Shown one piece after another: positions 22,865-62,776 of a stretch of 64,000 nt of DNA (the stretch's first letter is position 1; each line of letters begins with the position of its first letter). Origin of the DNA: an uncultured Gaiellales bacterium (GTDB lineage: Bacteria; Actinomycetota; Thermoleophilia; BMS3ABIN01). The position numbers were made by a program, and so were the translations under genes. The DNA is taken from NCBI GenBank assembly GCA_964497425.1, contig CAZCCR010000004.1:6345-70344 (forward strand), in the 5' to 3' direction. The notes beneath the pieces were generated by a model that saw only the letters and a list, made by a program, of their open reading frames with translations, ran no database searches and was not told where the DNA came from.

Positions 22865-22961
22865 GTCATGTCATTCCGCACCCGTCTGTCCCCGCCGCCG
22901 CCCTCCTGTGTTATTATGCCAATAACTTGACCTTTTTTATCAACAAACAGCTATCGGCGCC

Positions 22962-24053
22962 ATGACCTCCGGTCCCGGTCCTGAGACCATCCGCAAGCTG
23001 GTGGACCTGGGCAGCGTGACACCGGCAGAGACCGTCACGGCGGATTACGACGTTCACGGGGTCAGCACCCGTGTCGTCACCAACTCCCGCGCCATAGCGG
23101 CCGCCATCGAGCGTTTCCTCCAGCCATTCAAGGCGGAAGCGGCGGTGGCGGAGTCCTCCTCCGGCCCGGACATCAGCGTGCACCTCTTCGCTGTGGACGC
23201 ACTCTCCCCGGAGATGTCCCCTCGTGACGGCGACGCTGAAATGCTCTATAACTGGGGAACGCTCAAGGTATATCATGACGGGCCCCGCCGCTACGCAGAA
23301 GTGGATACACGCGCGAGGATGACGGCTGATGTGGATGCCTGCGCCGCCGCCGGGTTCACCCGCGAGGCGTTGCTGGAATCGGACTGGCTCATCACCAACC
23401 TCTTCTTTTATCCCCTCTGGGCGCAGATGCTCAAGGTGAAGGGGCTTTTCCCCCTCCATGCCGCCGGGCTCTGCCGCGGGGACCGCTCCGCTCTTTTCCT
23501 GGGCAGGAGCGGCAGCGGCAAATCCACCCTTTCCATCAGCCTGGTCAAGGGCGGTTACGGCATACTAAGCGACGACACCGTCTTCCTCAGGGAAAAAGGC
23601 GGCAGACTCGAAGCGCTCGCCTTTCCCGAAGAGATCAACGTCCGTGAGGAGACCATCAGGTTATTGCCGGATCTTTCCCGGGTAAGGAATTTCAACATGA
23701 ACGAGCTCAGACAGAAATCATCCTTCTCCATCGAGGAGCTTTATCCCGGCAGCATCGCCGAATCGTCGCAGCCGGTGGTAATGGCTTTCACGCAAGTTGC
23801 CGACAGTGAGACAACGACCGCCGAGCCCATGTCGGGCACGGAGGCCCTGTCCCAGTCCCTGCGCTACGGGTTCTTCTTCCTTGACCCATCGACGAACGAG
23901 CGACATTTTTATATCATGTCCATGTTGGCGCGGCAGGCGCGATGCTTCCGCCTCCGTACCGGCAGAGACCAGGACGGGCTGGTGCGAGTGGTAGATGGGC
24001 TGCTGGCCGAAGCCGGACAAGGCGATGTATCATCTGAAGAGGGGAAAGGATAA
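22962..24053 (+). CDS. HPr-kinase-related P-loop serine kinase (lasso-peptide-associated type)
   Basis: GRSGSGKSTLS P-loop inside an HprK C-terminal-like fold. First gene of an operon with PqqD and B2 proteins. Confidence 0.7.
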   Translation: MTSGPGPETIRKLVDLGSVTPAETVTADYDVHGVSTRVVTNSRAIAAAIERFLQPFKAEAAVAESSSGPDISVHLFAVDALSPEMSPRDGDAEMLYNWGTLKVYHDGPRRYAEVDTRARMTADVDACAAAGFTREALLESDWLITNLFFYPLWAQMLKVKGLFPLHAAGLCRGDRSALFLGRSGSGKSTLSISLVKGGYGILSDDTVFLREKGGRLEALAFPEEINVREETIRLLPDLSRVRNFNMNELRQKSSFSIEELYPGSIAESSQPVVMAFTQVADSETTTAEPMSGTEALSQSLRYGFFFLDPSTNERHFYIMSMLARQARCFRLRTGRDQDGLVRVVDGLLAEAGQGDVSSEEGKG

Positions 24054-24364
24054 TGGAAACAACGCATTACCTGATCAAGAACGACGAAGTCCTGTTCACC
24101 TCCATGGGTGAAGACGCTGTGCTGCTCCATGTCAACCGGGGCGACTATTACAGCCTCAACAAGGTGGGAGCGCGCCTCTGGATCCTCAGCGACGGCAGCA
24201 GGAGCATCTCCGACCTTGCCTCACTGATCACGGAGGAGTTCGAGATAACCAAGGAGGAGGCGGAAAAAGATATCCTGGAGCTGGCGGAGCAGCTCGTGAG
24301 CGAGGGGCTGGTGAAAGTTGCCGAAACTCCTGAGGACGATAAATCGGCTGAAGGATCCGCGTGA
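24053..24364 (+). CDS. PqqD-family protein (RiPP recognition element / lasso B1-like)
   Basis: 103 aa. DAVLLHVNRGDYYSLNKVGARLWILSDGSRSISDLASLITEEF is a typical PqqD/RRE fold. The ATG overlaps the upstream stop (TAATG). Confidence 0.8.
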   Translation: METTHYLIKNDEVLFTSMGEDAVLLHVNRGDYYSLNKVGARLWILSDGSRSISDLASLITEEFEITKEEAEKDILELAEQLVSEGLVKVAETPEDDKSAEGSA

Positions 24365-24866
24365 CCTCTGGCTCTTCCTGCGCATCCTGGCGATGCTCAT
24401 CCGCCTCCCCAGCCTCATTGAAAAGGAAAGTCTCCCCGACCTGCTGAACCGGCTCGACCCGGGGGTGTCGCCGGGACCCCGCGACCGGGAGATGCTGGAC
24501 AAGACCGCCGGTTTCGTGGACTCCCTCCTCAAGTACCGCTTTTTCCAGCGCTATGGCAGATGCCTGATGCGCTCCCTCACCCTATTCCACTTCCTGCGGC
24601 GGCAGGGCTGGCCGGTAGGCATCCGTTTCGGGGTGAGGAAGACCGGCGGCGAGACTGAGGATGCGGGCGGGGAGGGCAGCGGCGGCGCTGAAGCGTCCAG
24701 CCGGGAGAGAGGCGTCAGCGCAGACGTCCATCGTCCGAAAGCGGATACAGTGCCGGCCGCCGGCGCCGTCTCCATCACCGGCCACAGCTGGCTGGTGCTG
24801 GAGGGAGAACCGTTCCTGGAGAGGGAACCGATCGAAAGCTACGCCGTCACATTCTCCTACCCGTGA
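24318..24866 (+). CDS. lasso-peptide B2-type transglutaminase-like cysteine protease
   Basis: Catalytic Cys in YGRCLMRSLTLFHFLRRQGWPVGIRFGV and His in ITGHSWLVLEGEPFLE, the classic B2 arrangement. TTG start overlaps the end of the PqqD gene. Confidence 0.7.
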   Translation: MPKLLRTINRLKDPRDLWLFLRILAMLIRLPSLIEKESLPDLLNRLDPGVSPGPRDREMLDKTAGFVDSLLKYRFFQRYGRCLMRSLTLFHFLRRQGWPVGIRFGVRKTGGETEDAGGEGSGGAEASSRERGVSADVHRPKADTVPAAGAVSITGHSWLVLEGEPFLEREPIESYAVTFSYP

Positions 24867-24879
24867 GGCCATCCGGCAT

Positions 24880-26772
24880 TTGAGCATCTTGAACGATAAC
24901 CGATACCCAGGATTTCTTGCAGTTGCCTTCACCGGAGGCGCAACAGGGCTGATGTCCGGCTACGTCTTCCTGCAGTCTGACATATCAGGCAACGCCCTGA
25001 TGATGGTCGTCTTCTGTGTGACCGGTGCATTATTGCTGGGTCTGGCATGGGCCGCCGTCTCGAAGGGTGTCTCCATCGCAACGGACACAGACCCGGCTTC
25101 AGTGCGCCACCGCGCCCTCTGGCCTTTCCTTACCTTCATCATCCTGCCGTTGCTCTATCTCCCGTATTTCTATTACCGTAATCACGGAAAGCAGTACATC
25201 CCCGGGATATCGCCTCTCGACCCGTCCTGGCAGATGTTGTTCGTCCTCCTGCTCTCCGCCGGCCTGGTGTTCGCGTTCCTGGCATACAGGTTCCCTTTCC
25301 TCAGGCGCGGCCCCATCGATGCGGCAACCAGGAGACCGGCCATCTCGTTGGCGATAATGATTACCATCTGGTCGATAGCCGTCGTCATCCTGAACCTGCT
25401 GCAGGTCAATTACCTCAACCAGCCCGGCAACAACTCAGCCATCTTCTCCGATATGCTGGATAACGCCTTCTCCGACAGGGGCCTGCTATTCAGTGAACTG
25501 GCGCAGGCGGAAGGCTCCAGTATATTGGGCGTTCACGCGCAACTGATCTGGTTTATCGTCTATCCCTTTTACCTCATCTGGCCCAGCTATCAGTGGCTGC
25601 TGATATTGTCCGATGTCGCTCTCGCGCTTGCGGCAGTGCCACTGTACCTTTTGTCGCGCCGTTTCTTCAATCCCGGCGTCAGTCTGCTCATTGCGGCTGT
25701 TTTCCTTTTCAACCGGATCATCCTGGCGCAGCCCGCGGTCGGCGACCTGTCCGAAGAACGCTTCCTGCCCATGTTGCTGCTGTCGGCCTTCTACTTCTGG
25801 CAGACGAAGAAATACAAGCGCTATCTGCTGTTCACCTTCTTGATGCTGCTGGTGCGGGAAGACACCGGGCTCGTGCTTGTCATGTTCGGCCTTGTCTCCG
25901 CCCTCAACCGCCGGAGCCTGAAGTGGACCATGGTCCCGATCATCGCAGGCCTGAGCTGGGTGGGGACGATGATGCTCTGGCTGATACCTCACATGAACCC
26001 CACCGGCAGCGCCACCAAACCGGTTGTCCTGTACAGCTCTCTCGGCGAGAACAGCCGTGAGATCCTGAAGACCATCATCTTCAAGCCGTGGGTCGTCATC
26101 AGGACAGCTTTCTCCTCCGTCAGCCGGTTCGGCGTGATGTACGGTCTATGGCAATCCTTCGCTTTCGGGGCCCCCCTGATTTCGGCATCGGTGCTGATAG
26201 CCCTGCCGGCGACAGCCGAGAGCTTCCTGGCCTCCACCCCGATCGGCCTGAACCACTTCAACATGCTGGCGCCTGCCGCCGCCCTCTTCCCTTCGCTGGT
26301 CCTGGGGATGGACCGGGCCGAGAGGATAGCGAGGAACAGATGGAACATCCCGATCTCGACAGGACTGGCGGTCATCACCCTGTTTGCGACACTGGCACTG
26401 TCATATACTTGGTTCAGCCCTGGATACTACAAGCCCAGTCAGAATTACGAAGCCGCCGTGAGCATGATTGAAATGATCCCATCCGACGCTTCCGTGATGA
26501 TGCCGAAATACATGATGGTCAAGGCTCAGGGCTCACAAAGGGTGAAAGGCTATTACCAGGCCGAATATGAATACGCGCAAAAGGGAGATATCAACCTGGT
26601 ACAGGATTACATAATCATCGACAGCTCGGAAGTACCGGAATCCTGGAAAAGCGATGTCCAGGAGTTCCGCGGCAGGGAAAGGGTCATCGACTCATTGGAC
26701 TCCTCCCCTGACTATATACTGGTCTTTTCAGAAGACAACCTGAAGATGTTTCAACGAACGGAAACCCGATAA
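24880..26772 (+). CDS. large polytopic membrane protein, GT-C-like (DUF2079-like), with a C-terminal extracytoplasmic domain
   Basis: ~12 predicted TM helices then a ~130 aa soluble tail. Start uncertain (TTG 24880 or ATG 24952). The ORF-track N-terminus overlapping the B2 gene is discarded. Confidence 0.55.
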   Translation: MSILNDNRYPGFLAVAFTGGATGLMSGYVFLQSDISGNALMMVVFCVTGALLLGLAWAAVSKGVSIATDTDPASVRHRALWPFLTFIILPLLYLPYFYYRNHGKQYIPGISPLDPSWQMLFVLLLSAGLVFAFLAYRFPFLRRGPIDAATRRPAISLAIMITIWSIAVVILNLLQVNYLNQPGNNSAIFSDMLDNAFSDRGLLFSELAQAEGSSILGVHAQLIWFIVYPFYLIWPSYQWLLILSDVALALAAVPLYLLSRRFFNPGVSLLIAAVFLFNRIILAQPAVGDLSEERFLPMLLLSAFYFWQTKKYKRYLLFTFLMLLVREDTGLVLVMFGLVSALNRRSLKWTMVPIIAGLSWVGTMMLWLIPHMNPTGSATKPVVLYSSLGENSREILKTIIFKPWVVIRTAFSSVSRFGVMYGLWQSFAFGAPLISASVLIALPATAESFLASTPIGLNHFNMLAPAAALFPSLVLGMDRAERIARNRWNIPISTGLAVITLFATLALSYTWFSPGYYKPSQNYEAAVSMIEMIPSDASVMMPKYMMVKAQGSQRVKGYYQAEYEYAQKGDINLVQDYIIIDSSEVPESWKSDVQEFRGRERVIDSLDSSPDYILVFSEDNLKMFQRTETR

Positions 26773-26775
26773 CCG

Positions 26776-27987
26776 ATGGATCATCACATACATGAGAAGG
26801 AGCTGCTGCTTGCGAGCGCTTCCTACCCGCTGAGAACGTCTGATACGCCTGATATCTCAGAACTGGTCAGACAGCCGCTTGACTGGGAATACATCACCCT
26901 TTCTTCCGGACGCCATGGTCTGGCTTCCCTGCTGTTCAGGATGCTGTCAGAGCATGAGTCCGCCGACCTCGTGCCTGCCGAAGTGATGGAAAGACTGAAG
27001 AAAGGCTATCTCGCCACCCTGATGAGAAACCGTCTTTTTTATCATGTGATCGAACCTCTGCTCTCTTCATTCGCGGAGAACTCTGTGCCGGTTATCCTCC
27101 TGAAGGGGGCCGCGCTATGCATGACCATCTACGACGACATCGCCCTGAGACCGCTTGGCGATATGGACATCATGGTCCATCGTGAACATGTCACCCTCTG
27201 CCGTGAGCTGATGGAGGATGCCGGCTTCCATCTTATAGAGAACAACTATTTCCCCATCCCGGATGATAGAAATGACGAGCTCGGTTGCGAGTGGTCATAT
27301 CATATCCAGAACAATGTGGTGGAGCTGCATTGGGACCTGGTAACCAGGCTGGCTCCGTTCCAGGTGGAGATATCACGTTTTTGGGCGGATGCGGTCGATG
27401 TCGAACCGAAAGGCGGACCAGCACTGATAATGGAGCCCGGGAACCAGCTTCTGCATCTGTGCCTGCACCAGTTCAAACATCACTGGATGCATTTCAGGGA
27501 CCTGGTGGACGTGGCGCTGTTGCTCGAGAAATACGGAGACATCATCGACTGGGACAGGTTCACACGTGACGCGCAGGAGCAGGGTCTGGGCCGATGCGCC
27601 TACTACACCATCAAACTGACGAACCAAACCTTGGGCACACCGGTCGGATATATACCCCTTGCAGGGATACTGGGCCGCCCAAAGCCCAATATCCTGGCAG
27701 ACAGCATGAAAGACCTCATCGCCAGCAACATACTGGAAAGTCATATGCCCAGACGCTTCTGGGAACTGTTGCTGGTCGATGGCGCCGCCAACAAGACCAC
27801 CGTGATAAGAAACACCCTTGCCCATCCGTTCCCACGCAAGTTGACCCGGGGGCAGTTACCGCAGGATTCCAGACAGGGCGTCATCCACAGAACCCGGGCA
27901 GCCATAAGATCGGTGTTCTTCTACCGCAGGTTGTTCATCGAGTTCCCGCGCCATATATGGCGAATCATCAGGAAGCGGGCGAGCTGA
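26776..27987 (+). CDS. nucleotidyltransferase family protein of the type found in lasso-peptide/HprK clusters
   Basis: Polymerase-beta-like NTase core (PLGDMDIMV, ELHWDL). Last gene of the plus-strand operon. Confidence 0.65.
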   Translation: MDHHIHEKELLLASASYPLRTSDTPDISELVRQPLDWEYITLSSGRHGLASLLFRMLSEHESADLVPAEVMERLKKGYLATLMRNRLFYHVIEPLLSSFAENSVPVILLKGAALCMTIYDDIALRPLGDMDIMVHREHVTLCRELMEDAGFHLIENNYFPIPDDRNDELGCEWSYHIQNNVVELHWDLVTRLAPFQVEISRFWADAVDVEPKGGPALIMEPGNQLLHLCLHQFKHHWMHFRDLVDVALLLEKYGDIIDWDRFTRDAQEQGLGRCAYYTIKLTNQTLGTPVGYIPLAGILGRPKPNILADSMKDLIASNILESHMPRRFWELLLVDGAANKTTVIRNTLAHPFPRKLTRGQLPQDSRQGVIHRTRAAIRSVFFYRRLFIEFPRHIWRIIRKRAS

Positions 27988-27999
27988 GGTTGCGCCGGT

Positions 28000-29751
28000 T
28001 CAGGCGGACGGGACTTTGGGGAAGTAATACTGTTGACCATCCGCGTCGTCAGCCCGCTGGTGAATGACCGTCGAGAACGATGTCAGATCCGGCGGGACAT
28101 GATACATGACATCGAAGTCCACGTGCCCACCTGAGGCGACAGGACCCAGGTCTGTGACAGTCGGTGTCGCCTCAACCCCGGAGCTTGCGGATACAGACAG
28201 GATGCTGGTGCTGACGGCATCGCCGATACCCACGTTCGTCGTCCTGAAACGGACTTTGAGGTCGCCGTTCAGATAGTCCGCGTAGCTTGGCCATTCCGAG
28301 TTCACCAGACTGACGATCAGATAAACACCGTCCATGCTTGTCGTGGTGAACGATCCGCTGCTGGCCGCCTCGCCCGAACCATCGGAGGATATCACCTCGT
28401 ACTGGTAAGTCGTAGCCGGCATGAGATTGGTCAGCATGATCCGGTGCTCCGGTGACCATGCCGTCTCCACGGCCTCGGCGGGCTGGGACCCATCGGCCCA
28501 GTACCGGACTCTGGCATCCGTCGCAAGATTGGTCGACCATTCCAGGGCGGCGGTCGTCGGTTCGATATCGGTGACGGCGACGTTCCCGGAAACCTGGGGC
28601 ACCGGGGCTGTGGTCTGGGGGACAAGCTCGATCCAGAACGTATCACTCCAACGGGTACCCTGTGTGACGAGCTTGTGCCTCTCGGACGGCGGCGGGGACC
28701 CTCCCCACCAGGCTGTGTAACGAACCGTATGCCCGTTTGCCTGTTGTGAATAGCTCGAGAACTCGACGTTCTCTGCGGATGTGTCGCCGAACATGCTTTG
28801 GCCGAGCGCGAACAACCCCCCGCCTTCGAAACCGTTGCCGTTGTTATCCATCTTGATCCTTACGGAAGAACCGTTCCCCGGTTTTGTCAGGTTGAAATGC
28901 TCCGAATGCCTGATCTGATAATCATGGTCATGGCCGGTGTCGAGGCCCGTGATCAGCATCGTCTCGTTATTCGGATTCTCTATCCCATTGGAACCCGCGC
29001 CTCCACATCGCCATTCCCCGCCATGCCTCACTGCTTCGGCCTCCTGCCAGCCATACTGCCGGCTGAAGGAGAAGTCGTAGGCAGGTTCCGCCGCGAAGAA
29101 GGAGCGCAGGAACTCCATGCTTATCTCCAGATGGATCTGCCCGCCTGGATAGACGGTCCATCTCTTGTCGACGCGGTAGTCGTCCGGGTTGGCGTCCTGA
29201 AGGTCGAAGTCGTTGTCTTTGACTATGAAGCTTGCTTCAAAAACGGCATTGCCGTCGCTGTCGATGTAATGGTTCCTCGACAGAAGCCGGGCCCATCTCC
29301 CTACATCGGATGTTGCCGGCGCATTGGGGTCCAGAGACCATACATGCGTTGCCCCCAGGCCCCCGATACCCGGCATGTTGGGACTGGTGCTCCCGCCACC
29401 GCCATCGACCACCGCGACGATATTCCTCTCAAGTCCCGGGTCCGTTCTCTTGTCGTAGAGCTCGTAGATGCTGCCTCCGCCCCGGTTGGAGTATTCGCTG
29501 GCGAGCGTCCTGTAATGCCAGACCACTCTGACGACGTCGTTGTCCAAAGTCAGTTTACCCTGGACCGGGTCGTCGGTGAATGTGAATGTGGACACGGTTG
29601 CCGATGTGGACAGGTCGATCGCCTGACCGGCGTACATGTCATCCGTGCCCGGTACAAGAAACATCATTGACACCAGTATGCCAATGACAAAAGTCGCTGC
29701 TATGAGGATTTTCAACACCGTACTCGCTCCTCGGCAGCCGGGCCGTCTCAT
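28000..29751 (-). CDS. signal-anchored secreted protein with a C-terminal fibronectin-III-like domain (possible glycan-processing enzyme)
   Basis: ATG at 29749-29751 (MRRPGCRGASTVLKILIAATFVIGILVSMMFLV signal anchor). FN3 signature near the C-terminus. No confident catalytic family. Confidence 0.55.
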   Translation of the reverse strand: MRRPGCRGASTVLKILIAATFVIGILVSMMFLVPGTDDMYAGQAIDLSTSATVSTFTFTDDPVQGKLTLDNDVVRVVWHYRTLASEYSNRGGGSIYELYDKRTDPGLERNIVAVVDGGGGSTSPNMPGIGGLGATHVWSLDPNAPATSDVGRWARLLSRNHYIDSDGNAVFEASFIVKDNDFDLQDANPDDYRVDKRWTVYPGGQIHLEISMEFLRSFFAAEPAYDFSFSRQYGWQEAEAVRHGGEWRCGGAGSNGIENPNNETMLITGLDTGHDHDYQIRHSEHFNLTKPGNGSSVRIKMDNNGNGFEGGGLFALGQSMFGDTSAENVEFSSYSQQANGHTVRYTAWWGGSPPPSERHKLVTQGTRWSDTFWIELVPQTTAPVPQVSGNVAVTDIEPTTAALEWSTNLATDARVRYWADGSQPAEAVETAWSPEHRIMLTNLMPATTYQYEVISSDGSGEAASSGSFTTTSMDGVYLIVSLVNSEWPSYADYLNGDLKVRFRTTNVGIGDAVSTSILSVSASSGVEATPTVTDLGPVASGGHVDFDVMYHVPPDLTSFSTVIHQRADDADGQQYYFPKVPSA

Positions 29752-30008
29752 TGAGACCCCTGGCTTTGCGTCCCCGCCTTGCGGCGGGTTTGCCTTTTCG
29801 GAAGCTAGTGCGAGTGGTAAACCAGTGTTGCTCCCTCCCCCATCAAGCACACATCCCTCTCGTGTGCACCGCCTCGGTTTAGCCTTCAATTAATTTTTCG
29901 GCAGTAGTACTCCCATGTTTAGCCTGTCCGTTTGCGAAGGGGCGACCAATGGGATTGCGGCTTCCTGCCGCCCAGCGTCCCTGTCGTTGATGGTCCAATT
30001 GCAGCCTC

Positions 30009-31055
30009 ATGCCCCTACAGCTATACTGGATTCAGGACAGCATCTCCCCTTCTTTTCCTGGATTCGTGAAAACAAGGAAGTTGACAGACTACACCAGCCT
30101 CCAGCAGCTGGCCTCACGCCAGTTCGTGATGCTGCGCGGTTTGAACCCCAGGAAGATGGCCAATGCGGCCGGCATCTATTACGAGTACCGCAGAAAGAAG
30201 GTCGTGCTCAAACATAAACCTCTGCTGCTGAAGATCGAACCATCCAATCACTGCAACCTGCGGTGCCCCACCTGCCATCCGGACGGCAATACTTCCGGCG
30301 GCACGATGGACGAGGAGACATTCCGCACTATTCTTGAGAAAGCTCCCATGGACTACTTCCTCAAGAGCACGCTCTACATGTTCGGGGAACCGTTGCTCAA
30401 CAAGCGCATATACAGCATGATCTCGCAGGTATCCAGATACGGCATACCCACTTCCATCAGTACCAATTTCCATGTCTTCGACGAGAAACGCGCCGAGGAG
30501 ATGCTTGCCTCGGGCCTCACCTGGATACTTGTCTGTATCGACGGCGCCAGCCAGGAGACCTACGAGATATACCGCGTCGGCGGTGACCTTGAGAAGGTGA
30601 AGGAGAATATCAGGATACTGGTGGCCGAGAAACAGCGTCAGGGCTCCAAATATCCTGTCATCGAGGTGCAGTCGGTCATCTTCGACCACAACCGTCACGA
30701 GATGGACGAGATAGAGCGTATGGTCCTCTCCCTCGGCGCAGACCGTTTCACCACCAAGGAAGACGTCTTCACCCAGCTCGACTATGGCGATAAAGAGCTT
30801 GTCCCCGAAGAAGGGAAACCGAAGAAGGGCCGCTCGTGCTTCTTCCTCTATGGAACGTTCATGGTGGATTACGACGGCGTGGTCCTGCCCTGTTGCCTCG
30901 GCCGCTCCAGATTCGGCGATCTCAAAGAGTCCTCATTCGAGGAGATCTGGAATAACGAGAAGTTCACAGCGGCGCGACGCTGGTTCTCCAGCGGTTTCAC
31001 CGACAGGGACGACGATCTGGACCTGCCGTGCTATAACTGTCCCCTCTTCATGTAA
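30009..31055 (+). CDS. radical SAM enzyme with a SPASM/twitch C-terminal domain
   Basis: LKIEPSNHCNLRCPTC radical-SAM motif. C-terminal VLPCCLGR...DLPCYNCPLF auxiliary-cluster cysteines. GC3 suggests translation begins nearer 30066 (GTG) than 30009. Confidence 0.75.
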   Translation: MPLQLYWIQDSISPSFPGFVKTRKLTDYTSLQQLASRQFVMLRGLNPRKMANAAGIYYEYRRKKVVLKHKPLLLKIEPSNHCNLRCPTCHPDGNTSGGTMDEETFRTILEKAPMDYFLKSTLYMFGEPLLNKRIYSMISQVSRYGIPTSISTNFHVFDEKRAEEMLASGLTWILVCIDGASQETYEIYRVGGDLEKVKENIRILVAEKQRQGSKYPVIEVQSVIFDHNRHEMDEIERMVLSLGADRFTTKEDVFTQLDYGDKELVPEEGKPKKGRSCFFLYGTFMVDYDGVVLPCCLGRSRFGDLKESSFEEIWNNEKFTAARRWFSSGFTDRDDDLDLPCYNCPLFM

Positions 31056-31097: not shown

Positions 31098-32825
31098 CTA
31101 CAGATAGCCCAGGTCCTTCAACCGCTGCTCAATGACTTCCGAATCCTCCTCGGAATAGACGTCCTCCTGCTCGGCTTCACCGGCTGTCTCGACACCGTAT
31201 CTGGGCTTGTTGGCCTCAAGGTGTTCCCTTTTGAATATCCGCTCAAGGACCCTGCCGTCGAAGTCTCCGGGGATCTCCTCCCCGAAGTGGTAGAGGACCG
31301 TCGGCGCGACATCGACTATACCGGCGCCTTCCAGCCTCTTGCCCTGCCTTATCGCCGGTCCGGTGGCGATGAATATGCCGTTCAGCTGGTGTCCGCCGGT
31401 GGGATTTCCCAGGGGCCAGTCCCAATCGACAGGTTCCACCGACTCGGACGAACTCCTCGTCCTTATACCGTTGATAACCGCATCGGTGCGCCAGCGGACA
31501 CTGATATCAGCGGCCTTTTCAACCTGTCGGCCCTGGTAGGCATCCTCTCTGCGGAAGACCTCGTCGACGATGGGTTTCCCCGTTGCCGCGTCCCTGGCGT
31601 CCGCCAGTTCAGAACATATGCTTTCACAAAGACCGTCATACTCGGATTGAGGGACGATACCCATGGGGTCACGCCCGGCCAGGTTTATCCAGATATCATC
31701 CATGGCTCCATCACAGAAGGCCTTGGTCCGTCGCCAGTCGATCCCGCCCAGTTTCATCGCCGACTCTACAGCGCCGAGCATGCCAGGGAAACGGCGCGCC
31801 AGTTTCAACTTGGTCGTCGAGGAAAGATACCTGTTGGCCAGTCGGTAACCGGCCCCTCCCACGGCGCCGAACGCGCGCCTGGCGACCTTGCGCGGGTCTG
31901 ACCATGACTGACCTTCCATCCTCATCAGGCCCAGATCGGTGAGCCAATCCCCCAGCAGCTGGGCGCCGCGAGGATTCACCGCTCCACCATGGTCAGATAC
32001 TATCATCACCGTAGCGTCAGGGTTCCTCTCGAGCAGACGCCCGATGATGTCATCCATCCGCTGGTAGACCTTGAGGATGGTGTCGCCGTAGCGTTCCGCT
32101 TCGGCCGGATCATAGGCTGGATGGGATGGGTCGAAGAACTTCCAGTAGAAATGGTGAACGTTGTCGGTCTCGCCGAAGACCACCGTGAAAAGGTCCCAGT
32201 CATATCTGTCCATCAGATAGGAAGTGTGACGATAGCGGATCTCCATACTGTCGAGAAGGCGCTCTGCACCCTCCTTCCAGCGGCCCTCCGACCTGAGCAC
32301 ATGGGTGAGATTGGCGGTGATGCGATACTCACCGTTCTCGGCTATCATCTCCTCGAGCAGGTTCCGGGGATGACACACCTTTTCGCTGTCAACGCCCGGT
32401 GCATCCAGCCCGGCGATCATGCACCCGTTTATCTCCTGTACCGGATAGCTCATGGGCACGTTCACCACGCATCCCGTCCTCTCACCACAGAGGATCTCCC
32501 AGAATGTCCGGGCGCACCGGTGGGCCCCGTTTACGTATCCAAAACCGTAACTGTCGAAATGCCGCTCGGTAAAGCCGAATATGCCATGCTTGCCGGGATT
32601 CTTGCCGGTGCTGAACGATGTCCAGGCCGGCGGGCTGCTCATGGTGGGAACTGAGCGCAAAGGCCCGTACACGCCCCCCTCCATCAGCTTGCCGACGGTC
32701 GGGAGCTTGCCCTCACCGACCCATTTTTCCAGCAGGTCGGGGCTGGTGCCGTCAAACCCCAGTATCAACAACCTGTTTCTCCTACCGTTCTCCAAGCCAC
32801 ACTCCAGGAACTTCCATTCGGTCAC
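31098..32825 (-). CDS. alkaline-phosphatase-superfamily type I phosphodiesterase / nucleotide pyrophosphatase-like enzyme (paralog 1)
   Basis: LILGFDGTSPD metal site, TMSSPPAWTSFSTGKNPGKHGIFGF nucleophile region. Acidic C-terminal tail ending RLKDLGYL. Confidence 0.75.
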   Translation of the reverse strand: MTEWKFLECGLENGRRNRLLILGFDGTSPDLLEKWVGEGKLPTVGKLMEGGVYGPLRSVPTMSSPPAWTSFSTGKNPGKHGIFGFTERHFDSYGFGYVNGAHRCARTFWEILCGERTGCVVNVPMSYPVQEINGCMIAGLDAPGVDSEKVCHPRNLLEEMIAENGEYRITANLTHVLRSEGRWKEGAERLLDSMEIRYRHTSYLMDRYDWDLFTVVFGETDNVHHFYWKFFDPSHPAYDPAEAERYGDTILKVYQRMDDIIGRLLERNPDATVMIVSDHGGAVNPRGAQLLGDWLTDLGLMRMEGQSWSDPRKVARRAFGAVGGAGYRLANRYLSSTTKLKLARRFPGMLGAVESAMKLGGIDWRRTKAFCDGAMDDIWINLAGRDPMGIVPQSEYDGLCESICSELADARDAATGKPIVDEVFRREDAYQGRQVEKAADISVRWRTDAVINGIRTRSSSESVEPVDWDWPLGNPTGGHQLNGIFIATGPAIRQGKRLEGAGIVDVAPTVLYHFGEEIPGDFDGRVLERIFKREHLEANKPRYGVETAGEAEQEDVYSEEDSEVIEQRLKDLGYL

Positions 32826-34051: not shown

Positions 34052-35181
34052 CTGGCGCCCGCCTCTCTCAATACGTCCTCGTATACCGCAAGTGTCCTGC
34101 GGGCGCATTCGCGCCAGCTGAAACAGCGCGCCCTCTCGAGGCCCGCCCTGCTGAATGCGGCGTTGACGGCAGGCTCCAGCAACAGGGATGCGGTCGCGGC
34201 GGCGATGCCGTCCACGTCGAAGGGGTCGACCTTGACGCCCGCGTCCCCCACCACCTCAGGCAGTGAGGCCCGGTCCGAGACCACCACCGGCGTACCACAG
34301 GCCATCGCCTCCAGCGGAGGCAACCCGAACCCTTCATATATCGACGGATAGACGAAAACATCCGCGCCGGAGTAGAGCGCGGGCAGGTCCTCGTCCGGGA
34401 CATAACCCGTCAGCACGATATCGTCAGACCAGCGTGACTCTTCGATAAGTGACAGGACGGGGTCGTGGCGCCAGGCTTTCTTGCCTACCAGGACTAGGCG
34501 ATGCCTGATATCCGGCCTGACCGACCTCATGCGTGAATAGGCCCTGATCAGCCGGGGGATGTTCTTCCGCGGCTGGAGATTCCCCACGGCCAGTACATAA
34601 GGCCCGCCGACCCCGTACCGGGACCTCACCGACTCCAGGCGGTCCCTGTCTTCAACAGGGGCGAAATCATCGCCGGCAGCGAGGTATGTCACCGTCACTT
34701 TCTCTTCCGGCAGCCCGTATATCTCCACCAGATCCCGTTTGGAGTGCTCGGAAATGGTCAGGACCCTGGCGGCCAGCCTGGCCGAAAGAGGGAAGGTGGC
34801 CCTGAACTGCAACCGTTCCCTGGCGGAGAAGAACCGGGGATAAGTCTCGAATGATATGTCATGTATCACCGTGACCAGCGGAGCAGTCATCACCGGTGGT
34901 CCCACATACTGGACGTGGAGAAGGTCAAGACCCAGCTTCCAGACCAGCCATGGCGTGACAAAAGGTATTCGCACCAGAGGGTTGGCAGGCAAAGCCATCA
35001 CCGGGCGTGCCTCGGGGAACCTGCCGCCCGCTTCCTCCGCGGCCCGCTCGTCCGTGAACAGCAGCGTGAAACGATGGCCACTGTCAAGTCCGATGAGTCC
35101 GTCTATGAGATTGGTGACATAGGTCTCGTTGCCGGTAAGGCGCCCCCCTATCGCATGAGCATCGATACCGATCTCAGCCAT
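34048..35181 (-). CDS. glycosyltransferase family 4 (GT-B)
   Basis: YPSIYEGFGLPPLEAMACGTPVV EX7E motif. Confidence 0.85.
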   Translation of the reverse strand: MAEIGIDAHAIGGRLTGNETYVTNLIDGLIGLDSGHRFTLLFTDERAAEEAGGRFPEARPVMALPANPLVRIPFVTPWLVWKLGLDLLHVQYVGPPVMTAPLVTVIHDISFETYPRFFSARERLQFRATFPLSARLAARVLTISEHSKRDLVEIYGLPEEKVTVTYLAAGDDFAPVEDRDRLESVRSRYGVGGPYVLAVGNLQPRKNIPRLIRAYSRMRSVRPDIRHRLVLVGKKAWRHDPVLSLIEESRWSDDIVLTGYVPDEDLPALYSGADVFVYPSIYEGFGLPPLEAMACGTPVVVSDRASLPEVVGDAGVKVDPFDVDGIAAATASLLLEPAVNAAFSRAGLERARCFSWRECARRTLAVYEDVLREAGAS

Positions 35182-36631
35182 TTACGGCAACCCGACTTCC
35201 GTTTTGTTCCTCATCGGCCTCTGAGAGCGTCGCTTTGGATAAAGCCACGAGGATGCCGAGATAGATCCAGGGAAAGCCCAGCCAGAAGAAGGATGATGCC
35301 TGTGACGCCACTATCATCACGATGGCCCCCAACGCCATCCCGTAGAGGTTCGCCTTGCGTATCGAGCTGCGGGCTTTCCCCGCCGCCCTGAATGCATAGA
35401 CGATCGGGACGACGTGGATCCAGAGCATGAGGAACGCTCCCACGAGCCCGGTGTCGTGGAGGCTCTGGATCATGGAGCTGAAAAGCCATCCACGATTGGA
35501 GAAATTCTTCTCTCCGATGGACAGGAGCCCGTTTCCCAGGAAGGGGTGACTGCGCCATTCCTCTATCCCCTGGGTCTGGACATCGGTCCGGCCCGCCGCC
35601 GAACTGCTTTGAAAGTTCAACAGGTTCTGCACCCTGCCCAGAAAAGCATTATTCGTTCCTGAAGATTCCGAGAAGACATAATTCACCAGCGGGAAGGAAA
35701 CGGCGAAGATCATGAGCATGGCCAGGATGAATGCTATCGACCTGGGATTTATCACGTTTCTCACCGGCCTCGAGTAGAAAGGCAGATAAACCATCACTAT
35801 TATCACGCCGACCCAGGCGGCGCGCGTCAGTGATGTCATCGTAGCTATGAACAGGAGTATCAGTCCGAGCCAGAGAAACCTCTCACTGGCAATCTTTTCC
35901 TTGCCGTAAGTCACCAGATGAGTGGTGAACAGTATCAGCATGATCGCAACATAGGCGCCCAGGAGGTTCGCTTCCTGGAACAGGCCGCTGGTCGACGGGA
36001 GCTTCAATGTTATCAGGTGGGAAAAGGATATACCGCCTATGTTTATCCCGAGGAAATGCGAGATGAAGGCGGTCAGGGAGTAGAGCGCGTGAATCGCAGC
36101 CATGAGCATCATGAGCTTCACCGTCAGATCCAGCCGTGATCTGTGCTCCAACAGCACATAGACCGTATAGAAGTACATGCTCATGTAGACTATCTGCAGG
36201 AACAGTCCCTGATAGCTGTAAGACGGATCCGGTGAAAACAGGTATGAGGAGACAAAGGCCGTGACAATGAGACCGATGATAGGGATATCGAGAACAGTGG
36301 CCGAGATCCTTGCTTTCCCGCTCAGGAAATAAGTCAGCCAGACAAGGGCGACGATGACCAGGATAACCTGTTCCGGCCTGAATGTGAAAGGGCCCAGGTC
36401 ATAACGGAAGATATTCAGCTGCGCAGCGATCAACAGCAGTATCAGGCCTCGCCAGGGATTGGTGGCGATCGCTGCAACTGCAACGAAAGCGAGAAGCAGC
36501 AACGGGATGACCGGATCGACCATGATCAGGCCGGCGGTGATCAAGCCCGCCGTGACCGCCAAAGCCAGTCCCGATACCACCAGCCAGCGGGCGGCAGGGT
36601 CTAACCTGTACTTTTCCACCAGCTGGTTCAT
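35174..36631 (-). CDS. O-antigen ligase / Wzy-like polysaccharide polymerase membrane protein
   Basis: ~11 TM helices with a Wzy_C-like periplasmic loop. Confidence 0.7.
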   Translation of the reverse strand: MNQLVEKYRLDPAARWLVVSGLALAVTAGLITAGLIMVDPVIPLLLLAFVAVAAIATNPWRGLILLLIAAQLNIFRYDLGPFTFRPEQVILVIVALVWLTYFLSGKARISATVLDIPIIGLIVTAFVSSYLFSPDPSYSYQGLFLQIVYMSMYFYTVYVLLEHRSRLDLTVKLMMLMAAIHALYSLTAFISHFLGINIGGISFSHLITLKLPSTSGLFQEANLLGAYVAIMLILFTTHLVTYGKEKIASERFLWLGLILLFIATMTSLTRAAWVGVIIVMVYLPFYSRPVRNVINPRSIAFILAMLMIFAVSFPLVNYVFSESSGTNNAFLGRVQNLLNFQSSSAAGRTDVQTQGIEEWRSHPFLGNGLLSIGEKNFSNRGWLFSSMIQSLHDTGLVGAFLMLWIHVVPIVYAFRAAGKARSSIRKANLYGMALGAIVMIVASQASSFFWLGFPWIYLGILVALSKATLSEADEEQNGSRVAVNG

Positions 36632-38665: not shown

Positions 38666-40015
38666 TCATGCAGGAACCCTTCGCCCCGCCGACCCGGACC
38701 TGCCGGTTCGATCTGTTTCCTTGACACGCAATACGTTCCCATGCATGATGCCCGCGGCAACCCAGAACATGGAAAAGATCGACCATATCATCATGGCGTC
38801 GAAGGTCATGGCGTTGAGGGAGATACCGATCACGCTCACCAGGCCCGCGACTATCCAGGAAACACGCCAATTCTTCCGTGATACCGTCCGCACGCCTTCA
38901 TATATCAAGACACCCAGCAGCCAGATCCAGAGCAGGAACCCGACCAGTCCCTGTTCCAGGAAGGTGTTGATGTAGTTGTTGTCCACGGGCTTGTAGCGGC
39001 CCTTATATATGAGAAACCCGCGGCAGTCCTCGCAGTAGGGGATGATCTCCCTGCGGCCCATCCTCAAACCGACCCCCAGCACCGGATGGTCTTTTATCAC
39101 CTCAAACGACGCCTGCCAACCGGTAAGCCTGAAACTCACGCTTTTTTCAGAACGTTCAGAGGTCTCATGCGCGAGTTTATCCCAGAATATGCCTGTTACC
39201 GCCAGTACGACGATCATCAACAGCATCAACGGCAAAGCCAGTCTTCGCTGCTCCCGCAGGAAGAAGAGGACAAGCGCCCCCGTTAGAATGACTCCCGCAG
39301 CCGCCCAGCTGCCCTTGGTGAAAGTGAATATCAGGGCCAGGACGACGAGAAACGAGACGGCGCCGCCCAGGTACCTGCCGAAACGGGAACCACCCCTCAG
39401 CCAGAACAGCACACAGAACGGCAGTGCCTGCACCAGGAACGCGCCAAAAGCCACCGGGTGGGCCAGGAATGAACCACTGCGGTGGAGCAGCGTGCCCTCC
39501 GCCACGGGAACAGACTCCACCAGATAGCGGCCCAGGATAACGTTGGAGCCATAGAAATACTCAAACAGACCATAAACGGATGTGACGCCGGCAAGAATCA
39601 CGATAAGCATGCCTATCCATTCCATCCGCTTCTCATCGTTGGCTACAAGCACCGCCAGATAGAAGAGGCTGACCGCCAACAAGGCATACTTCACCGAAGC
39701 GCCACCGGACTCGCCACTGATGTTCCTGAGAACGAAATAGGAATAATAGGTCACGAGGGAGATGTCCGCCATGCCCAGAGACAGCCTCCTTCGATTCCGC
39801 CAGAGAAGAGCCACGGCCCCGATCGCCGCCAACGGCATAAGCAAGGTAAGCGGCAGGATATGCTGCGTTCCCGCCATTATCACGTCGGGCATATAGGTCT
39901 CTGGATAAAGGACCGCAGTAGTGATCACAACCGTGAGAAGGATGGCAGCTGCGACCGTACCCCTGAGATGAGGCGAAGGACCCTCCCGGATTCCGGTTGT
40001 ACCCTTGTGATCCAT
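38666..40015 (-). CDS. second O-antigen ligase / Wzy-like membrane protein
   Basis: Polytopic membrane protein with a Wzy-type large loop. Confidence 0.65.
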   Translation of the reverse strand: MDHKGTTGIREGPSPHLRGTVAAAILLTVVITTAVLYPETYMPDVIMAGTQHILPLTLLMPLAAIGAVALLWRNRRRLSLGMADISLVTYYSYFVLRNISGESGGASVKYALLAVSLFYLAVLVANDEKRMEWIGMLIVILAGVTSVYGLFEYFYGSNVILGRYLVESVPVAEGTLLHRSGSFLAHPVAFGAFLVQALPFCVLFWLRGGSRFGRYLGGAVSFLVVLALIFTFTKGSWAAAGVILTGALVLFFLREQRRLALPLMLLMIVVLAVTGIFWDKLAHETSERSEKSVSFRLTGWQASFEVIKDHPVLGVGLRMGRREIIPYCEDCRGFLIYKGRYKPVDNNYINTFLEQGLVGFLLWIWLLGVLIYEGVRTVSRKNWRVSWIVAGLVSVIGISLNAMTFDAMMIWSIFSMFWVAAGIMHGNVLRVKETDRTGRSGSAGRRVPA

Positions 40016-40025
40016 CCCGCTCGGA

Positions 40026-41291
40026 CTAAGACAGCAGACCCGTGATCACCTCAGCCACCTGACGTATGCTGGTGACTTCAGCGGCTGCGTCATCTTCTCT
40101 GGCGGCGAGCCAGAAGGCGTCGTTGAATGTGTGCATACCGGACAGGTGGGTCCTGCCCATTACGTCGGGCCGGCCGATAGCGCCCTTGAGGTCATAACCA
40201 TCGTATGGCATCGCGACCAGGTCGGGAGCCTGCTCCAGGCACGGACCGTGATAGAGTTCGTCACGTTTATATACATGCTGGATGATCTCCCTGCCGGTCT
40301 CCGGGTCCCTCAGGGAAGCTACCGCTTCTGCCAGTTCCTCAACCGCAGCGTCATAGTCGCCGGCGCTGACGATCCCCCCCGGTTCCCTTCCCGCCAGATT
40401 GACATAAAGCCGGCCGGGGTCCATGCAATAGGCGCGAGTCGCTGAAGGTTCGATATCAGCGATGGTGACCGGGCGGTCGCCCCGCAACTCCAGAAACCCC
40501 GCCTGCTGGAGGAAGCGGTTCAGGTATACCTCCTTGTCGATGGAGCAGAAACCGTGATCCGAGAGCATGAATACCGCGGTATCTTCAGGGATCCCGGCCA
40601 GGAACTCACCGATGATCTCGTCGACACGCCGGTAATAGCGGATGAACTCCGACGCATAGGTACTGTCTTTCTCCTGATAATGACGCCAGAGGAAATGATG
40701 CAGGCGGTCCGTACCCGTGAAGACGTTCATGAAGAAGTCCCAGGAACGGGATTCCCAGAAATGAAGCATGGCCTCCCGCCTCTTCTCCAGGGTCTCGTGG
40801 AGGTCTTCCAGCAGCAGGTCGAGGGATTCACGGCCCTTCGATGCGTCCACATCGATCCTGTAACCGCTCTGTCGCAGGTACTCGTATGCTTCGACGGGAT
40901 ACGTCGCCCGCTCCAGGTTCGGCGCAACGAAACCGGAGACTAGGATGCCGTTCAGGGGACGGGCGGGATAGGTGGATGGGACGTTCAGTATGCAGCAGCT
41001 CCTGCCTTCCCCGCTCAACAGATCCCAGAAAGGCTCCGCCTTGAGGTGACTGTAGTTGGGGAAATACAGCTCGTAGGAGCCGGGCTTCCGGCCGGTGAAC
41101 CCGTATATTCCGTGCTCTCCGGGGTTCTTCCCGGTCATGAACGAGGCCCAGGCCACCGAAGAGATGGTGGGAATCTCCGATTCCATCCTGGAGAAGACCC
41201 CTCCGGAAGCCAGGGCGGCTATGTTGGGCAGGTTCCCGGACTCGATCTCATCATTGAGAAAGCTGAACGGAGTGCCGTCCAGACCGACCAC
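40026..41291 (-). CDS. type I phosphodiesterase/NPP-like enzyme (paralog 2)
   Basis: MVGLDGTPF, IPTISSVAWASFMTGKNPGEHGIYGF. GTG start. The N-terminus is shorter than in the paralogs. Confidence 0.75.
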   Translation of the reverse strand: MVGLDGTPFSFLNDEIESGNLPNIAALASGGVFSRMESEIPTISSVAWASFMTGKNPGEHGIYGFTGRKPGSYELYFPNYSHLKAEPFWDLLSGEGRSCCILNVPSTYPARPLNGILVSGFVAPNLERATYPVEAYEYLRQSGYRIDVDASKGRESLDLLLEDLHETLEKRREAMLHFWESRSWDFFMNVFTGTDRLHHFLWRHYQEKDSTYASEFIRYYRRVDEIIGEFLAGIPEDTAVFMLSDHGFCSIDKEVYLNRFLQQAGFLELRGDRPVTIADIEPSATRAYCMDPGRLYVNLAGREPGGIVSAGDYDAAVEELAEAVASLRDPETGREIIQHVYKRDELYHGPCLEQAPDLVAMPYDGYDLKGAIGRPDVMGRTHLSGMHTFNDAFWLAAREDDAAAEVTSIRQVAEVITGLLS

Positions 41292-41463
41292 GACTACGCG
41301 ATTTCCGTTGCGATTGTTTTTGATCGCTACCTACCGCCTGTTTCACTCGGTGCGAAAGAACACACCTGAGCCCACTGATACAAGAAACCTTTTATCTGGA
41401 ACACTACATCAACATGGGTACATCGATATGATTTTACCAGCAATGGAGTTTGATTGGATAACC

Positions 41464-50800: not shown

Positions 50801-50837
50801 AATGTCCTGCCCTTGCCTGTCACGACCGGAACCGGCC

Positions 50838-53167: not shown

Positions 53168-53188
53168 GGCCTCCTCTTGCGTTATGGG

Positions 53189-54550: not shown

Positions 54551-54594
54551 GGATCCCGTGCCTTTCCTCCCTTCGCGGCCTCCGCCGGCGACCT

Positions 54595-55383: not shown

Positions 55384-55410
55384 TCAGCCTCCTTAAAGCT
55401 GCTTTTTATC

Positions 55411-58996: not shown

Positions 58997-59071
58997 GGCA
59001 GGGCTGATCCAGGTCGTTTACATTAACGTGCACGGAAGCGCCGGGCGGCCGGCCCAACGGCCGTCCGCAGT

Positions 59072-60418: not shown

Positions 60419-60544
60419 TGACTACACTCCCTTCATCGCTTTACGGGACACTTATCACGTGGATACCATGCCTGTTTCGCCTCGCGTGTAGGACAGATAC
60501 CGTCTCACATCCCGCGGAACAGGCCAGGCGTCCCCCTGTTCATA

Positions 60545-62743: not shown

Positions 62744-62776
62744 ATCCCTGTGTTCCTTTCAGTCCCGGAGCCCGGC

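Follow-up and report, generated by a model that had tools for sequence, protein, structure and literature searches.

Clusters for phosphorylated lasso peptides, among them those of paeninodin and pseudomycoidin and the Bsf cluster of Bradymonas, hold discrete genes for a B1 protein, a B2 protease, an HPr-kinase-type Ser kinase, whose substrate is the precursor with its leader still attached, and a nucleotidyltransferase. The HprK-type kinase BsfK phosphorylates Ser3 of the core peptide in a B1-dependent manner, B1 and B2 remove the leader, and the leader motif Y(-17)xxP(-14)xL(-12)…T(-2)x has been described for lasso precursors (PMC10368454). In pseudomycoidin hexoses are attached to the phospho-Ser by the nucleotidyltransferase PsmN, and enzymes of this kind sometimes occur as fusions with B2 (PMC8498205). 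Here we analyse a five-gene operon in a stretch of 64,000 nucleotides from an uncultured Gaiellales bacterium (positions 6,345 to 70,344 of contig CAZCCR010000004.1, GenBank assembly GCA_964497425.1; "the window"), which encodes the same four types of protein and, in addition, a GT-C membrane protein. A preliminary description made from the DNA alone had likened the operon to the accessory set of phosphorylated lasso peptides, and this likeness holds. The precursors associated with the module also share the YxxPxL...T(-2) leader with those clusters. Unlike them, however, the operon has neither an Asn-synthetase-like cyclase nor an ABC exporter, is chromosomal and vertically conserved beside hemW, and goes with core peptides that cannot form a lasso, being too short or without Asp/Glu at positions 7-9. 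In addition, the precursors of its clade are unlinked from the enzymes and paired with genes of secreted proteins.

A second group of relatives are the HprK-related kinase A/B and SynChlorMet (Scm) families, in which an HprK-like P-loop protein is found beside PqqD, often with a radical S-adenosylmethionine (rSAM)/SPASM enzyme, as is the case here. Yet the proteins of the window score far under the cutoffs of these families, and neither a B2 protease nor a GT-C protein nor precursors of the present type feature in descriptions of the cassettes. The HprK_rel_A system is reportedly found near exopolysaccharide loci. Our literature searches yielded nothing on SynChlorMet or HprK-related kinases, no description of cyclase-less B1/B2/kinase cassettes and no precedent via PF14907, in line with the earlier statement that the system has no characterised counterpart.

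We consider it on balance probable that the operon is a trans-acting maturation module of a cyclase-less, lasso-derived system akin to those of peptides ribosomally synthesised and modified post-translationally (RiPPs), the product of which would be a linear, Ser-phosphorylated peptide tied to surface proteins. Thus, of the possibilities raised before, a linear non-lasso RiPP is the one favoured by the comparative evidence.

Conservation of the operon

The five plus-strand genes of the operon (open reading frames (ORFs) 22962-27987) code for a kinase (K1), a PqqD-family protein, a B2-like protease, a DUF2079 membrane protein and a nucleotidyltransferase (Table 1). Profile searches with Pfam and NCBIfam, and for the kinase motifs and fold, uphold the family assignments that had been proposed for all five. 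Homologues of the kinase occur in 'bacterium BMS3Abin01', the closest named relative, which has a syntenic locus and a kinase of 69% identity, and in uncultured Actinomycetota under the labels Thermoleophilia, Gaiellales or Actinomycetes. The order hemW on the minus strand, followed on the plus strand by kinase, PqqD and B2-like genes and optionally by the DUF2079 and nucleotidyltransferase genes, recurs in ~20 species-level genomes with kinase identities of 45-69%. Because the same order and the same neighbour hemW are found in that many genomes, the arrangement is not due to chance, and the module is vertically conserved at a fixed chromosomal site rather than being a mobile orphan, as which it had first been described.

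PqqD always directly follows K1 in the relatives, and the kinase-PqqD-B2 part of the proposed set is conserved. On the other hand, the DUF2079 gene is present in most syntenic loci and missing in five (L018, L020, L021, L023, L024) as well as in the related clusters L125-127, while the nucleotidyltransferase gene is present in a minority and missing or replaced by a methyltransferase gene in L001-L003 and others. Both are variable accessories and not part of the core.

The enzymes of the module

Sequence matches of the kinase were weak. Hpr_kinase_C was matched with an E-value of 3.6e-4, HprK_rel_A (TIGR04352) with 50.6 bits at a cutoff of 200 and the HprK/P equivalog TIGR00679 with 22.5 bits at a cutoff of 240; by these cutoffs the enzyme is neither an HprK-related kinase A nor an HprK/P equivalog. 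The SynChlorMet models likewise remained below threshold (ScmC 17.6 of 125, ScmD 32.9 of 100, ScmE 43.9 of 400, ScmF 32.7 of 400 bits), and homologues of the kinase carry the broader precomputed Pfam label PF27840 'ScmC'. H166, the P-loop G184-x-GKS188 and D204/D205 were invariant or nearly so in alignments of 18-44 homologues. The AlphaFold2 (AF2) model with a pLDDT of 92 adopted the P-loop fold common to phosphoenolpyruvate carboxykinase (PEPCK) and HprK. Its best PDB fold matches were full-length ATP-dependent PEP carboxykinases with an E-value of 5e-11, TM-scores of 0.5-0.6 and both domains covered. The N-terminal domain and the overall fold are nearer to PEPCK than to HprK/P, and judging from the model substrate binding by the N-terminal domain may resemble that of PEPCK. 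By analogy with the phospho-lasso clusters the enzyme is predicted to be a Ser kinase of the peptide core.

The PqqD protein, whose top NCBIfam match was the lasso PqqD chaperone NF033536 (61 bits, cutoff 80), provides a RiPP recognition element of the PqqD family as does B1 in lasso clusters. The B2-like protein exceeded the cutoff of the lasso B2 model NF033537 with 33.5 against 33 bits. Its Cys (CLxRSL) and His (GHSW) were kept in 31/31 homologues and an acidic residue at His+12 in most, i.e. it retains the Cys/His/acid triad of a B2 leader peptidase. Between the FGVRK and ITGHSW motifs it carries a low-complexity insert of ~45 residues rich in Gly, Ala, Ser and Glu (window 24630-24775), which is the longest among the 31 homologues and differs in length between relatives.

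In the nucleotidyltransferase K110-G111, R125 and D129-x-D131 were invariant and E183 and H185 present in 15/16 homologues, and the G…DxD…E motif is retained. Hence the operon contains the phospho-lasso tailoring set, an HPr-kinase-type P-loop kinase and a nucleotidyltransferase together with B1 and B2, with the role of the kinase being predicted.

The DUF2079 protein is polytopic with ~11-13 hydrophobic segments and a C-terminal soluble domain. In a Foldseek search with its AF2 model (pLDDT 85.6, pTM 0.87) all 25 PDB matches at E <= 0.001 were GT-C enzymes, including ALG12, STT3, PglB, ArnT, AftA, ALG9, DPY19 and AglB, with TM-scores of 0.31-0.50. The predicted model thus has the GT-C membrane fold, and the earlier call of a GT-C-like protein is borne out. 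With the GT-C enzymes acting on peptides or proteins (PglB/STT3, DPY19, PMT) it shares fold, polytopic topology and the C-terminal soluble domain, yet identity is only 9-15%, and the family is uncharacterised with no known link to a RiPP pathway; a literature search on DUF2079 found no paper. GT-C glycosyltransferases have an acidic catalytic residue within their first extracytoplasmic loop and use a donor linked to polyprenyl phosphate. In the DUF2079 proteins an F-x-D-A-L-x-N motif after the early helices is conserved in the majority of sequences; its Asp is not among the invariant columns of an 11-sequence alignment. PDB sequence searches with the kinase, the DUF2079 protein and the nucleotidyltransferase gave nothing useful.

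Precursor genes in the clade of the window

The precursors of the clade read …YAKPELVKHDNLKDITF/ECPxWQCSVxVPPPPAP, where the slash marks the predicted cleavage site; an example is MKKEAYEKPVLIKHENLKEITFECPNWQCSVTVPPPPA. NCBIfam has no model for them and returned only a weak match of lasso_cyano to the leader (E 0.018). A scan of metagenomes for such genes yielded 86 copies in 79 loci, beyond those beside a second kinase described below. The coding sequences had a ratio of non-synonymous to synonymous change (pN/pS) of 0.23 at pS = 0.62, with several synonymous codons used at conserved positions. Ser was present in every actinobacterial (Actinomycetota) core seen.

Out of the 86 copies, 61 are located directly downstream of a gene for a secreted protein of a family designated SecP here; 14 are cut by a contig end, and the other 11 have different positions. 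The N-terminal parts of SecP proteins vary, being propeller-like, FN3 or vWA, and a C-terminal Ig/CARDB-like domain of ~100 residues is common to them. The same domain forms the C-terminus of the FN3 protein whose gene adjoins the operon in the window, as shown by alignment with the proteins preceding precursor genes elsewhere. It is therefore not a mere neighbour, as had been assumed, but belongs to a secreted-protein family whose genes normally precede precursors. A PDB sequence search with the FN3 protein gave FN3-domain matches only. Its Pro-rich tail (...YYFPKVPSA) was considered as a mimic of the precursor tail (...VTVPPPPA) and rejected, because homologues differ too much in the tail that follows the Y/F-P motif.

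A paralogous kinase, K2, with 35-38% identity is encoded on another contig in six metagenome-assembled genomes (MAGs) that have the hemW-adjacent operon. In 5/6 K2 loci the small ORF of the ECPxWQCSVxVPPPP-type was found, with one to three copies per locus. At these loci (L004, L025-L030) the kinase gene is situated among SecP/precursor pairs without a PqqD or B2 gene, and a Gly/Ser-rich lipoprotein-like ORF, a SurA-like PPIase, GGDEF, DedA and BacA are encoded nearby. Neither PqqD nor B2 genes occurred near K2 or near any precursor locus of the clade, and consequently the hemW-adjacent operon is the only candidate leader-handling machinery found.

Operon and precursors occur together in five MAGs as identified by locus-tag prefix (WC911, ACYCXF, ACYC6Z, WC935, BMS3Abin01), a co-occurrence that is open to binning errors. 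In BMS3Abin01 a stand-alone precursor, MKKEAYEKPVLIKHENLKEITF/ECPNWQCSVTVPPPPA, is encoded beside hemC on another contig, and this hemC-adjacent position is kept in a second MAG (GCA_040961615.1). Relatives of the operon thus have matching lasso-leader precursors at other loci. The earlier finding that there is no precursor accordingly applies to the window and, as far as the relatives tell, probably not to the genome.

Direct linkage was seen in the related metagenomic clusters L125-127. Here two precursor/SecP pairs (…RYDAPELAKQKNLKRIAKDTTF/SIVVPGP) and kinase-PqqD-B2 genes lie within 6 kb, the latter in the gene order of the window, followed by PqqD-rSAM units and an ABC exporter. In L125 the segment 9270-14868 beside kinase-PqqD-B2 (also in L126 and L127) encodes a ScmC-like protein, an S24 peptidase, another ScmC-like protein, PqqD, an rSAM/SPASM enzyme, a Cys-rich peptide and the ABC exporter. 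The Cys-rich peptide of 62 amino acids with a YEKPAI leader motif marks a second RiPP-like sub-cluster.

Several precursor genes are flanked by regulators. A HisKA protein and a sigma-54 response regulator are divergently encoded in BMS3Abin01 (L128 4976-8231), HisKA_3/GerE at the start of L127, a GerE response regulator in L125 and a GGDEF protein in L025 (13186-14181). This neighbourhood hints that the peptide may have a signalling role.

Cassettes in other phyla

Distant relatives of the kinase are encoded in a four-gene cassette, PqqD-B2-kinase-nucleotidyltransferase, in Acidobacteriota, Meiothermus and other lineages. In these cassettes the nucleotidyltransferase is the usual partner of the kinase. 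Immediately ahead of most of them lies a small ORF bearing the lasso leader signature given above, e.g. MKKYVKPSLKGLGLLRLVTK/FSDPHRQCGS, and a leader hidden Markov model (HMM) matched these ORFs with E-values of 1e-9 to 1e-15, and of ~1e-5 for the shortest peptides. The cores comprise 3-22 residues, such as FSDPHRQCGS, LSGDKKVCD and FSF, with Ser at position 2 in many, not all, of them. A predicted core of just FSF (…LLRKLTH/FSF) was found in Meiothermus and in one actinobacterial MAG (L039), where the precursor ends three residues past the predicted cleavage site. Several cassettes have a large ORF embedded, which encodes a lipoprotein, in most cases with Big_1 or PD40. Those of 640-650 amino acids between B2 and kinase in Meiothermus and L040 were evaluated as lasso cyclases and discarded, because Pfam identified Big_1 or PD40 lipoproteins or gave no match. 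Asn_synthase was not a conserved neighbour in 79 flanking ORFs and two Pfam-annotated loci. From their gene content these loci appear to be cyclase-less, lasso-derived cassettes with precursors of their own.

Absence of a lasso cyclase, exporter and local precursor

The 51 larger ORFs of the window, which were chosen by a GC3 heuristic, were all scanned with Pfam. No Asn_synthase-type cyclase and no ABC transporter was among them. The flanks were accessible through JGI contig Ga0256747_1000045 (81.4 kb) and a Logan contig, which extend ~10 kb and ~7.5 kb past the window ends. These ~17 kb contained only Wood-Ljungdahl and shikimate-pathway genes and no cyclase, exporter or precursor; a canonical lasso cyclase, precursor and exporter just outside the window, which would have made this a standard cluster, were thus not found. 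Altogether, an Asn-synthetase-like macrolactam cyclase (C protein) was absent from the 51 scanned ORFs of the window and from the flanks and was not a conserved neighbour of related loci.

Nor was a precursor-like ORF detected in the window by a leader HMM derived from 16 precursors, by a strict regular expression or by a relaxed intergenic scan. The sole intergenic match, 41379-41450, has no start codon. The preliminary description of a locus without cyclase, exporter or precursor is thus accurate for the window.

The cores themselves are not competent for ring formation. In ECPxWQCSVxVPPPP positions 7-9 are C-S-V, and other cores of relatives are SIVVPGP, FSF and similar. Without a cyclase and without Asp/Glu at positions 7-9 no ring is possible. 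In our view the system is probably a RiPP pathway built of lasso parts, whose early steps would resemble phosphorylated lasso biosynthesis and which fails the lasso-defining tests of cyclase and ring-competent core.

Proposed pathway

The pairing of enzymes with substrates, the chemistry, the export and the biological role suggested in the following are inferred from gene families, catalytic motifs, folds, conservation and synteny, and from the precursors with their leader motif and their linkage to module and SecP genes in relatives. PqqD would bind the lasso-type leader (Y-17 xx P-14 x L-12 ... T-2 x) of precursors encoded outside the window. The HprK/PEPCK-fold kinase would phosphorylate the core Ser and the B2-like Cys protease would cut off the leader after Thr-Phe (Thr-x), with the product staying linear and no macrolactam being formed. 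The PF14907 nucleotidyltransferase probably adds a sugar or nucleotide to the phospho-Ser; it is likened to PsmN by its predicted role. The GT-C protein probably glycosylates an extracytoplasmic acceptor, i.e. the exported peptide or a partner surface protein. Support is weakest for this step, given the variable presence of DUF2079 and the lack of an exporter linked to the operon here.

The mature peptide would then act together with proteins of the SecP family, of which the FN3 protein beside the operon is one, being either their small partner or subunit or a signal that controls them. The pairing of one precursor gene per SecP gene suggests a stoichiometric small partner of SecP surface proteins. 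A RiPP-like small subunit is known from quinohemoprotein amine dehydrogenase, where the leader-bearing gamma subunit QhpC is modified in the cytoplasm by the QhpD/E/F system, loses its leader, is exported and joins secreted partners that are encoded adjacently. We use it as an analogy for a hypothetical peptide-SecP complex. Unlike the present system the Qhp system employs an rSAM/SPASM cross-linker, a subtilisin-type peptidase and a dedicated ABC exporter, and it lacks a kinase, a lasso-type leader and a GT-C protein.

A number of findings weigh against this pathway. A precursor was not found in the window or the ~17 kb around it, and the metagenome precursor scan gave no contig from the sample of the window, Ga0256747; the presence of a precursor in the source genome is therefore inferred from relatives. 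No exporter is linked to the operon or located at the K2 loci, which leaves an extracellular role unexplained. The search pattern accounts for part of the invariance of Cys, Trp and Ser in the cores. None of the curated kinase and PqqD models reaches its cutoff, and the kinase fold is closest to PEPCK and not to HprK, with matches that are not to the isolated HprK catalytic domain. Finally, the DUF2079 and nucleotidyltransferase genes are absent from several syntenic loci, and the lower GC content from ~24 kb on fits an affiliation of both with a variable glycan locus.

Alternative explanations

The last two points lead to the alternative that fares best, although we consider it unlikely and although it partly overlaps with the pathway above. 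It holds that two modules are juxtaposed, kinase-PqqD-B2 for peptide maturation, and DUF2079 plus nucleotidyltransferase as part of a neighbouring surface-glycan pathway, in which they might serve the polysaccharide as a GT-C transferase and as a sugar- or phospho-nucleotidyl enzyme. Besides the variable presence of these two genes among loci, the GC content falls from ~0.64 to 0.55-0.60 from within the operon through the exopolysaccharide locus, and in many relatives GT4 and GT2 glycosyltransferase genes come after the operon. However, the coupling of B2 and DUF2079 is tight, with a 13-nt gap here and a 4-nt overlap in BMS3Abin01, and is seen across lineages with 45-69% kinase identity. Furthermore, the nucleotidyltransferase partners the kinase in other phyla without glycan genes nearby, and in published lasso clusters the cluster nucleotidyltransferase acts on the peptide (PMC8498205).

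Alternatively, the FN3/SecP protein itself or a polysaccharide might be modified, in that PqqD recognises a protein segment, the kinase phosphorylates it and the B2-like protein clips or cross-links. Such a substrate would be in line with the convergent orientation of FN3 gene and operon in 10 of the syntenic GTDB loci, with the Big_1 or PD40 lipoproteins embedded in operons of other phyla and with a window devoid of a precursor. We regard it as improbable, because the N-termini of SecP proteins are ordinary signal peptides without a YxxPxL-type leader, and because SecP proteins are exported, whereas signal peptides and transmembrane segments are absent from kinase, PqqD, B2 and nucleotidyltransferase. 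In addition, most of the cassettes examined in other lineages have a small leader-bearing ORF linked to the module.

A third explanation, a canonical lasso cluster that is split, with cyclase and exporter elsewhere in the genome and a threaded lasso peptide as product, seems to us very improbable. In its favour, lasso clusters are known to encode all of B1, B2, kinase and nucleotidyltransferase (PMC8498205, PMC10368454), and the genome data here are incomplete. Yet Asn_synthase was lacking in the 51 window ORFs, in the ~17 kb of flanks and as a conserved neighbour in those related loci examined with Pfam, and the cores cannot close a ring, with Cys-Ser-Val at 7-9 of ECPxWQCSV and a length of 3-10 residues in others. 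Lastly, a functionless, decaying remnant of a former lasso cluster, as the local lack of cyclase, exporter and precursor and the long low-complexity insert in the B2 gene could suggest, is scarcely credible for enzymes with intact catalytic residues, whose frames show conservation and coupling at a fixed site of the chromosome in ~20 species-level lineages and have the high GC3 typical of expressed genes in the host genome.

Operon boundaries and neighbouring genes

Table 1. Genes of the operon, its two downstream neighbours (window positions) and FSF-type precursors (positions in the respective loci)
Feature	Position	Strand	Evidence
HprK/PEPCK-fold P-loop kinase, K1	22962..24053	+	weak HPr kinase family matches, motifs, AF2 fold
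PqqD-family RiPP recognition element, lasso B1-like	24053..24364	+	PF05402 4e-18
Transglutaminase-core Cys protease, lasso B2-like leader peptidase	24318(TTG)..24866	+	PF13471 (Transglut_core3) 1e-11, NF033537
DUF2079 polytopic membrane protein, GT-C fold	24880(TTG)..26772	+	PF09852 2e-48; alternative start 24952
PF14907 (NTP_transf_5) pol-beta-type nucleotidyltransferase	26776..27987	+	PF14907 3e-55
FN3 protein, secreted/membrane-anchored, SecP family	28000..29889	-	FN3 matches, N-terminal hydrophobic anchor; likely start 29751 or later
rSAM/SPASM enzyme, system membership uncertain	30009..31055	+	PF04055 + SPASM
FSF-type precursors	L037 ~2087-2215; L041 ~5061-5171, ~8044-8136; L039 ~9207-9067(-)		leader motif

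The tight coupling of the five genes that had been reported, including the stop/start overlap, the 47-nt overlap and the short gaps, was confirmed. At the junction of kinase and PqqD genes, ATAATGG, the stop codon of one overlaps the start codon of the other. The PqqD and B2-like genes overlap by 47 nt, given the early TTG start of the latter. In favour of this start, the stretch that it adds ahead of the next ATG (24393), …RTINRLKDPRDLWLFLRIL…, shows conservation in 31 homologues. The 13-nt gap between B2-like and DUF2079 genes depends on the TTG start at 24880, which is uncertain, as public gene calls have the ATG at 24952 (606 amino acids). DUF2079 and nucleotidyltransferase genes are 3 nt apart.

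The divergent intergenic region between hemW and the kinase gene comprises 97 nt (22865-22961). It contains a TTGACC…TATCGG-like pair that ends a few bases before the kinase ATG, and there is no obvious ribosome-binding site upstream of this ATG. Judged by these features, the kinase transcript may be leaderless. A scan with promoter and terminator consensus sequences performed at chance level and did not flag the pair.

The GC content is 0.55-0.60 across window positions 24000-46000, which comprise the DUF2079, nucleotidyltransferase, FN3 and rSAM genes and the whole polysaccharide locus, and 0.63-0.655 on both flanks, with kinase and PqqD on the high-GC side. This drop suggests that a variable or acquired surface-glycan region begins within the operon.

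The FN3 gene is located tail-to-tail with the operon. On its other side lies a plus-strand gene for an rSAM/SPASM enzyme, the best NCBIfam matches of which were rSAMs of the metalloenzyme-maturase type, all far under cutoff. An orthologue was found only in L008, the closest syntenic genome; other syntenic loci have unrelated rSAM/SPASM genes. It is uncertain whether the gene belongs to the peptide system. In the related clusters L125-127 PqqD is paired with rSAM genes. Three paralogous 'Phosphodiest' proteins of the alkaline-phosphatase (AlkP) superfamily are encoded in the polysaccharide locus (31098-32825(-), 40026-41291(-) and 41464-43176(-)), one of them convergently with the rSAM/SPASM gene. 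The latter might mature these enzymes rather than the peptide. With respect to a formylglycine-type AlkP maturase, no anSME model was among the best 25 of 44 NCBIfam matches.

The polysaccharide locus is of the Wzx/Wzy-type with two separate Wzy_C (O-antigen polymerase/ligase-like) genes (35174-36631(-) and 38666-40015(-)) and further contains genes for Wzz, GT2, two GT4, a flippase and a Bac_transf priming enzyme. Its GT2 was considered as a GtrB/DPM1-type polyprenyl-phosphate sugar synthase that feeds the GT-C enzyme and dismissed, since it has only one hydrophobic segment, at the C-terminus, and nothing specific speaks for such a role. The remainder of the window consists of trp/his genes, PilMNO, a housekeeping block of hrcA-dnaJ-rsmE-mtaB-phoH and a complete Wood-Ljungdahl-type cluster (46640-63997) with ACS/CODH subunits, a corrinoid protein, MTHFR, HdrA/MvhD-like and formate-dehydrogenase-like proteins, which continues past the window (L130) with FTHFS, RACo, FolD and CODH. 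From these genes the host is likely an anaerobic, acetogen-like actinobacterium.

Significance of the module

There is a realistic chance that the module defines a new RiPP class linked to surface proteins. In its widest form, which we put forward tentatively and regard as doubtful, such a class would use lasso-type leader recognition and cleavage decoupled from the lasso to produce short, linear, Ser-phosphorylated and maybe glycosylated peptides, each going one-to-one with a SecP-type surface protein as its subunit, anchor or cognate signal; the DUF2079 GT-C enzyme would finish the product outside the cell, and the class would extend across phyla down to peptides as short as FSF. As both the enzymes and candidate substrates are identified, the hypothesis is directly testable. 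It would also provide the first functional context for DUF2079, a GT-C family without literature.

Lasso B1 and B2 proteins are regarded only as the first step to lasso peptides, and a conserved, widespread, cyclase-less family would be new. If the proposed pathway is correct, the lasso machinery has a second use in making linear phospho-peptides, some with cores of 3-10 residues. The pairing of precursor genes with genes for surface proteins hints that the peptides serve cell-envelope assembly or signalling and not antibiosis, and the fixed position of the module beside housekeeping genes in deep-branching anaerobic Actinomycetota likewise hints at an envelope or signalling role.

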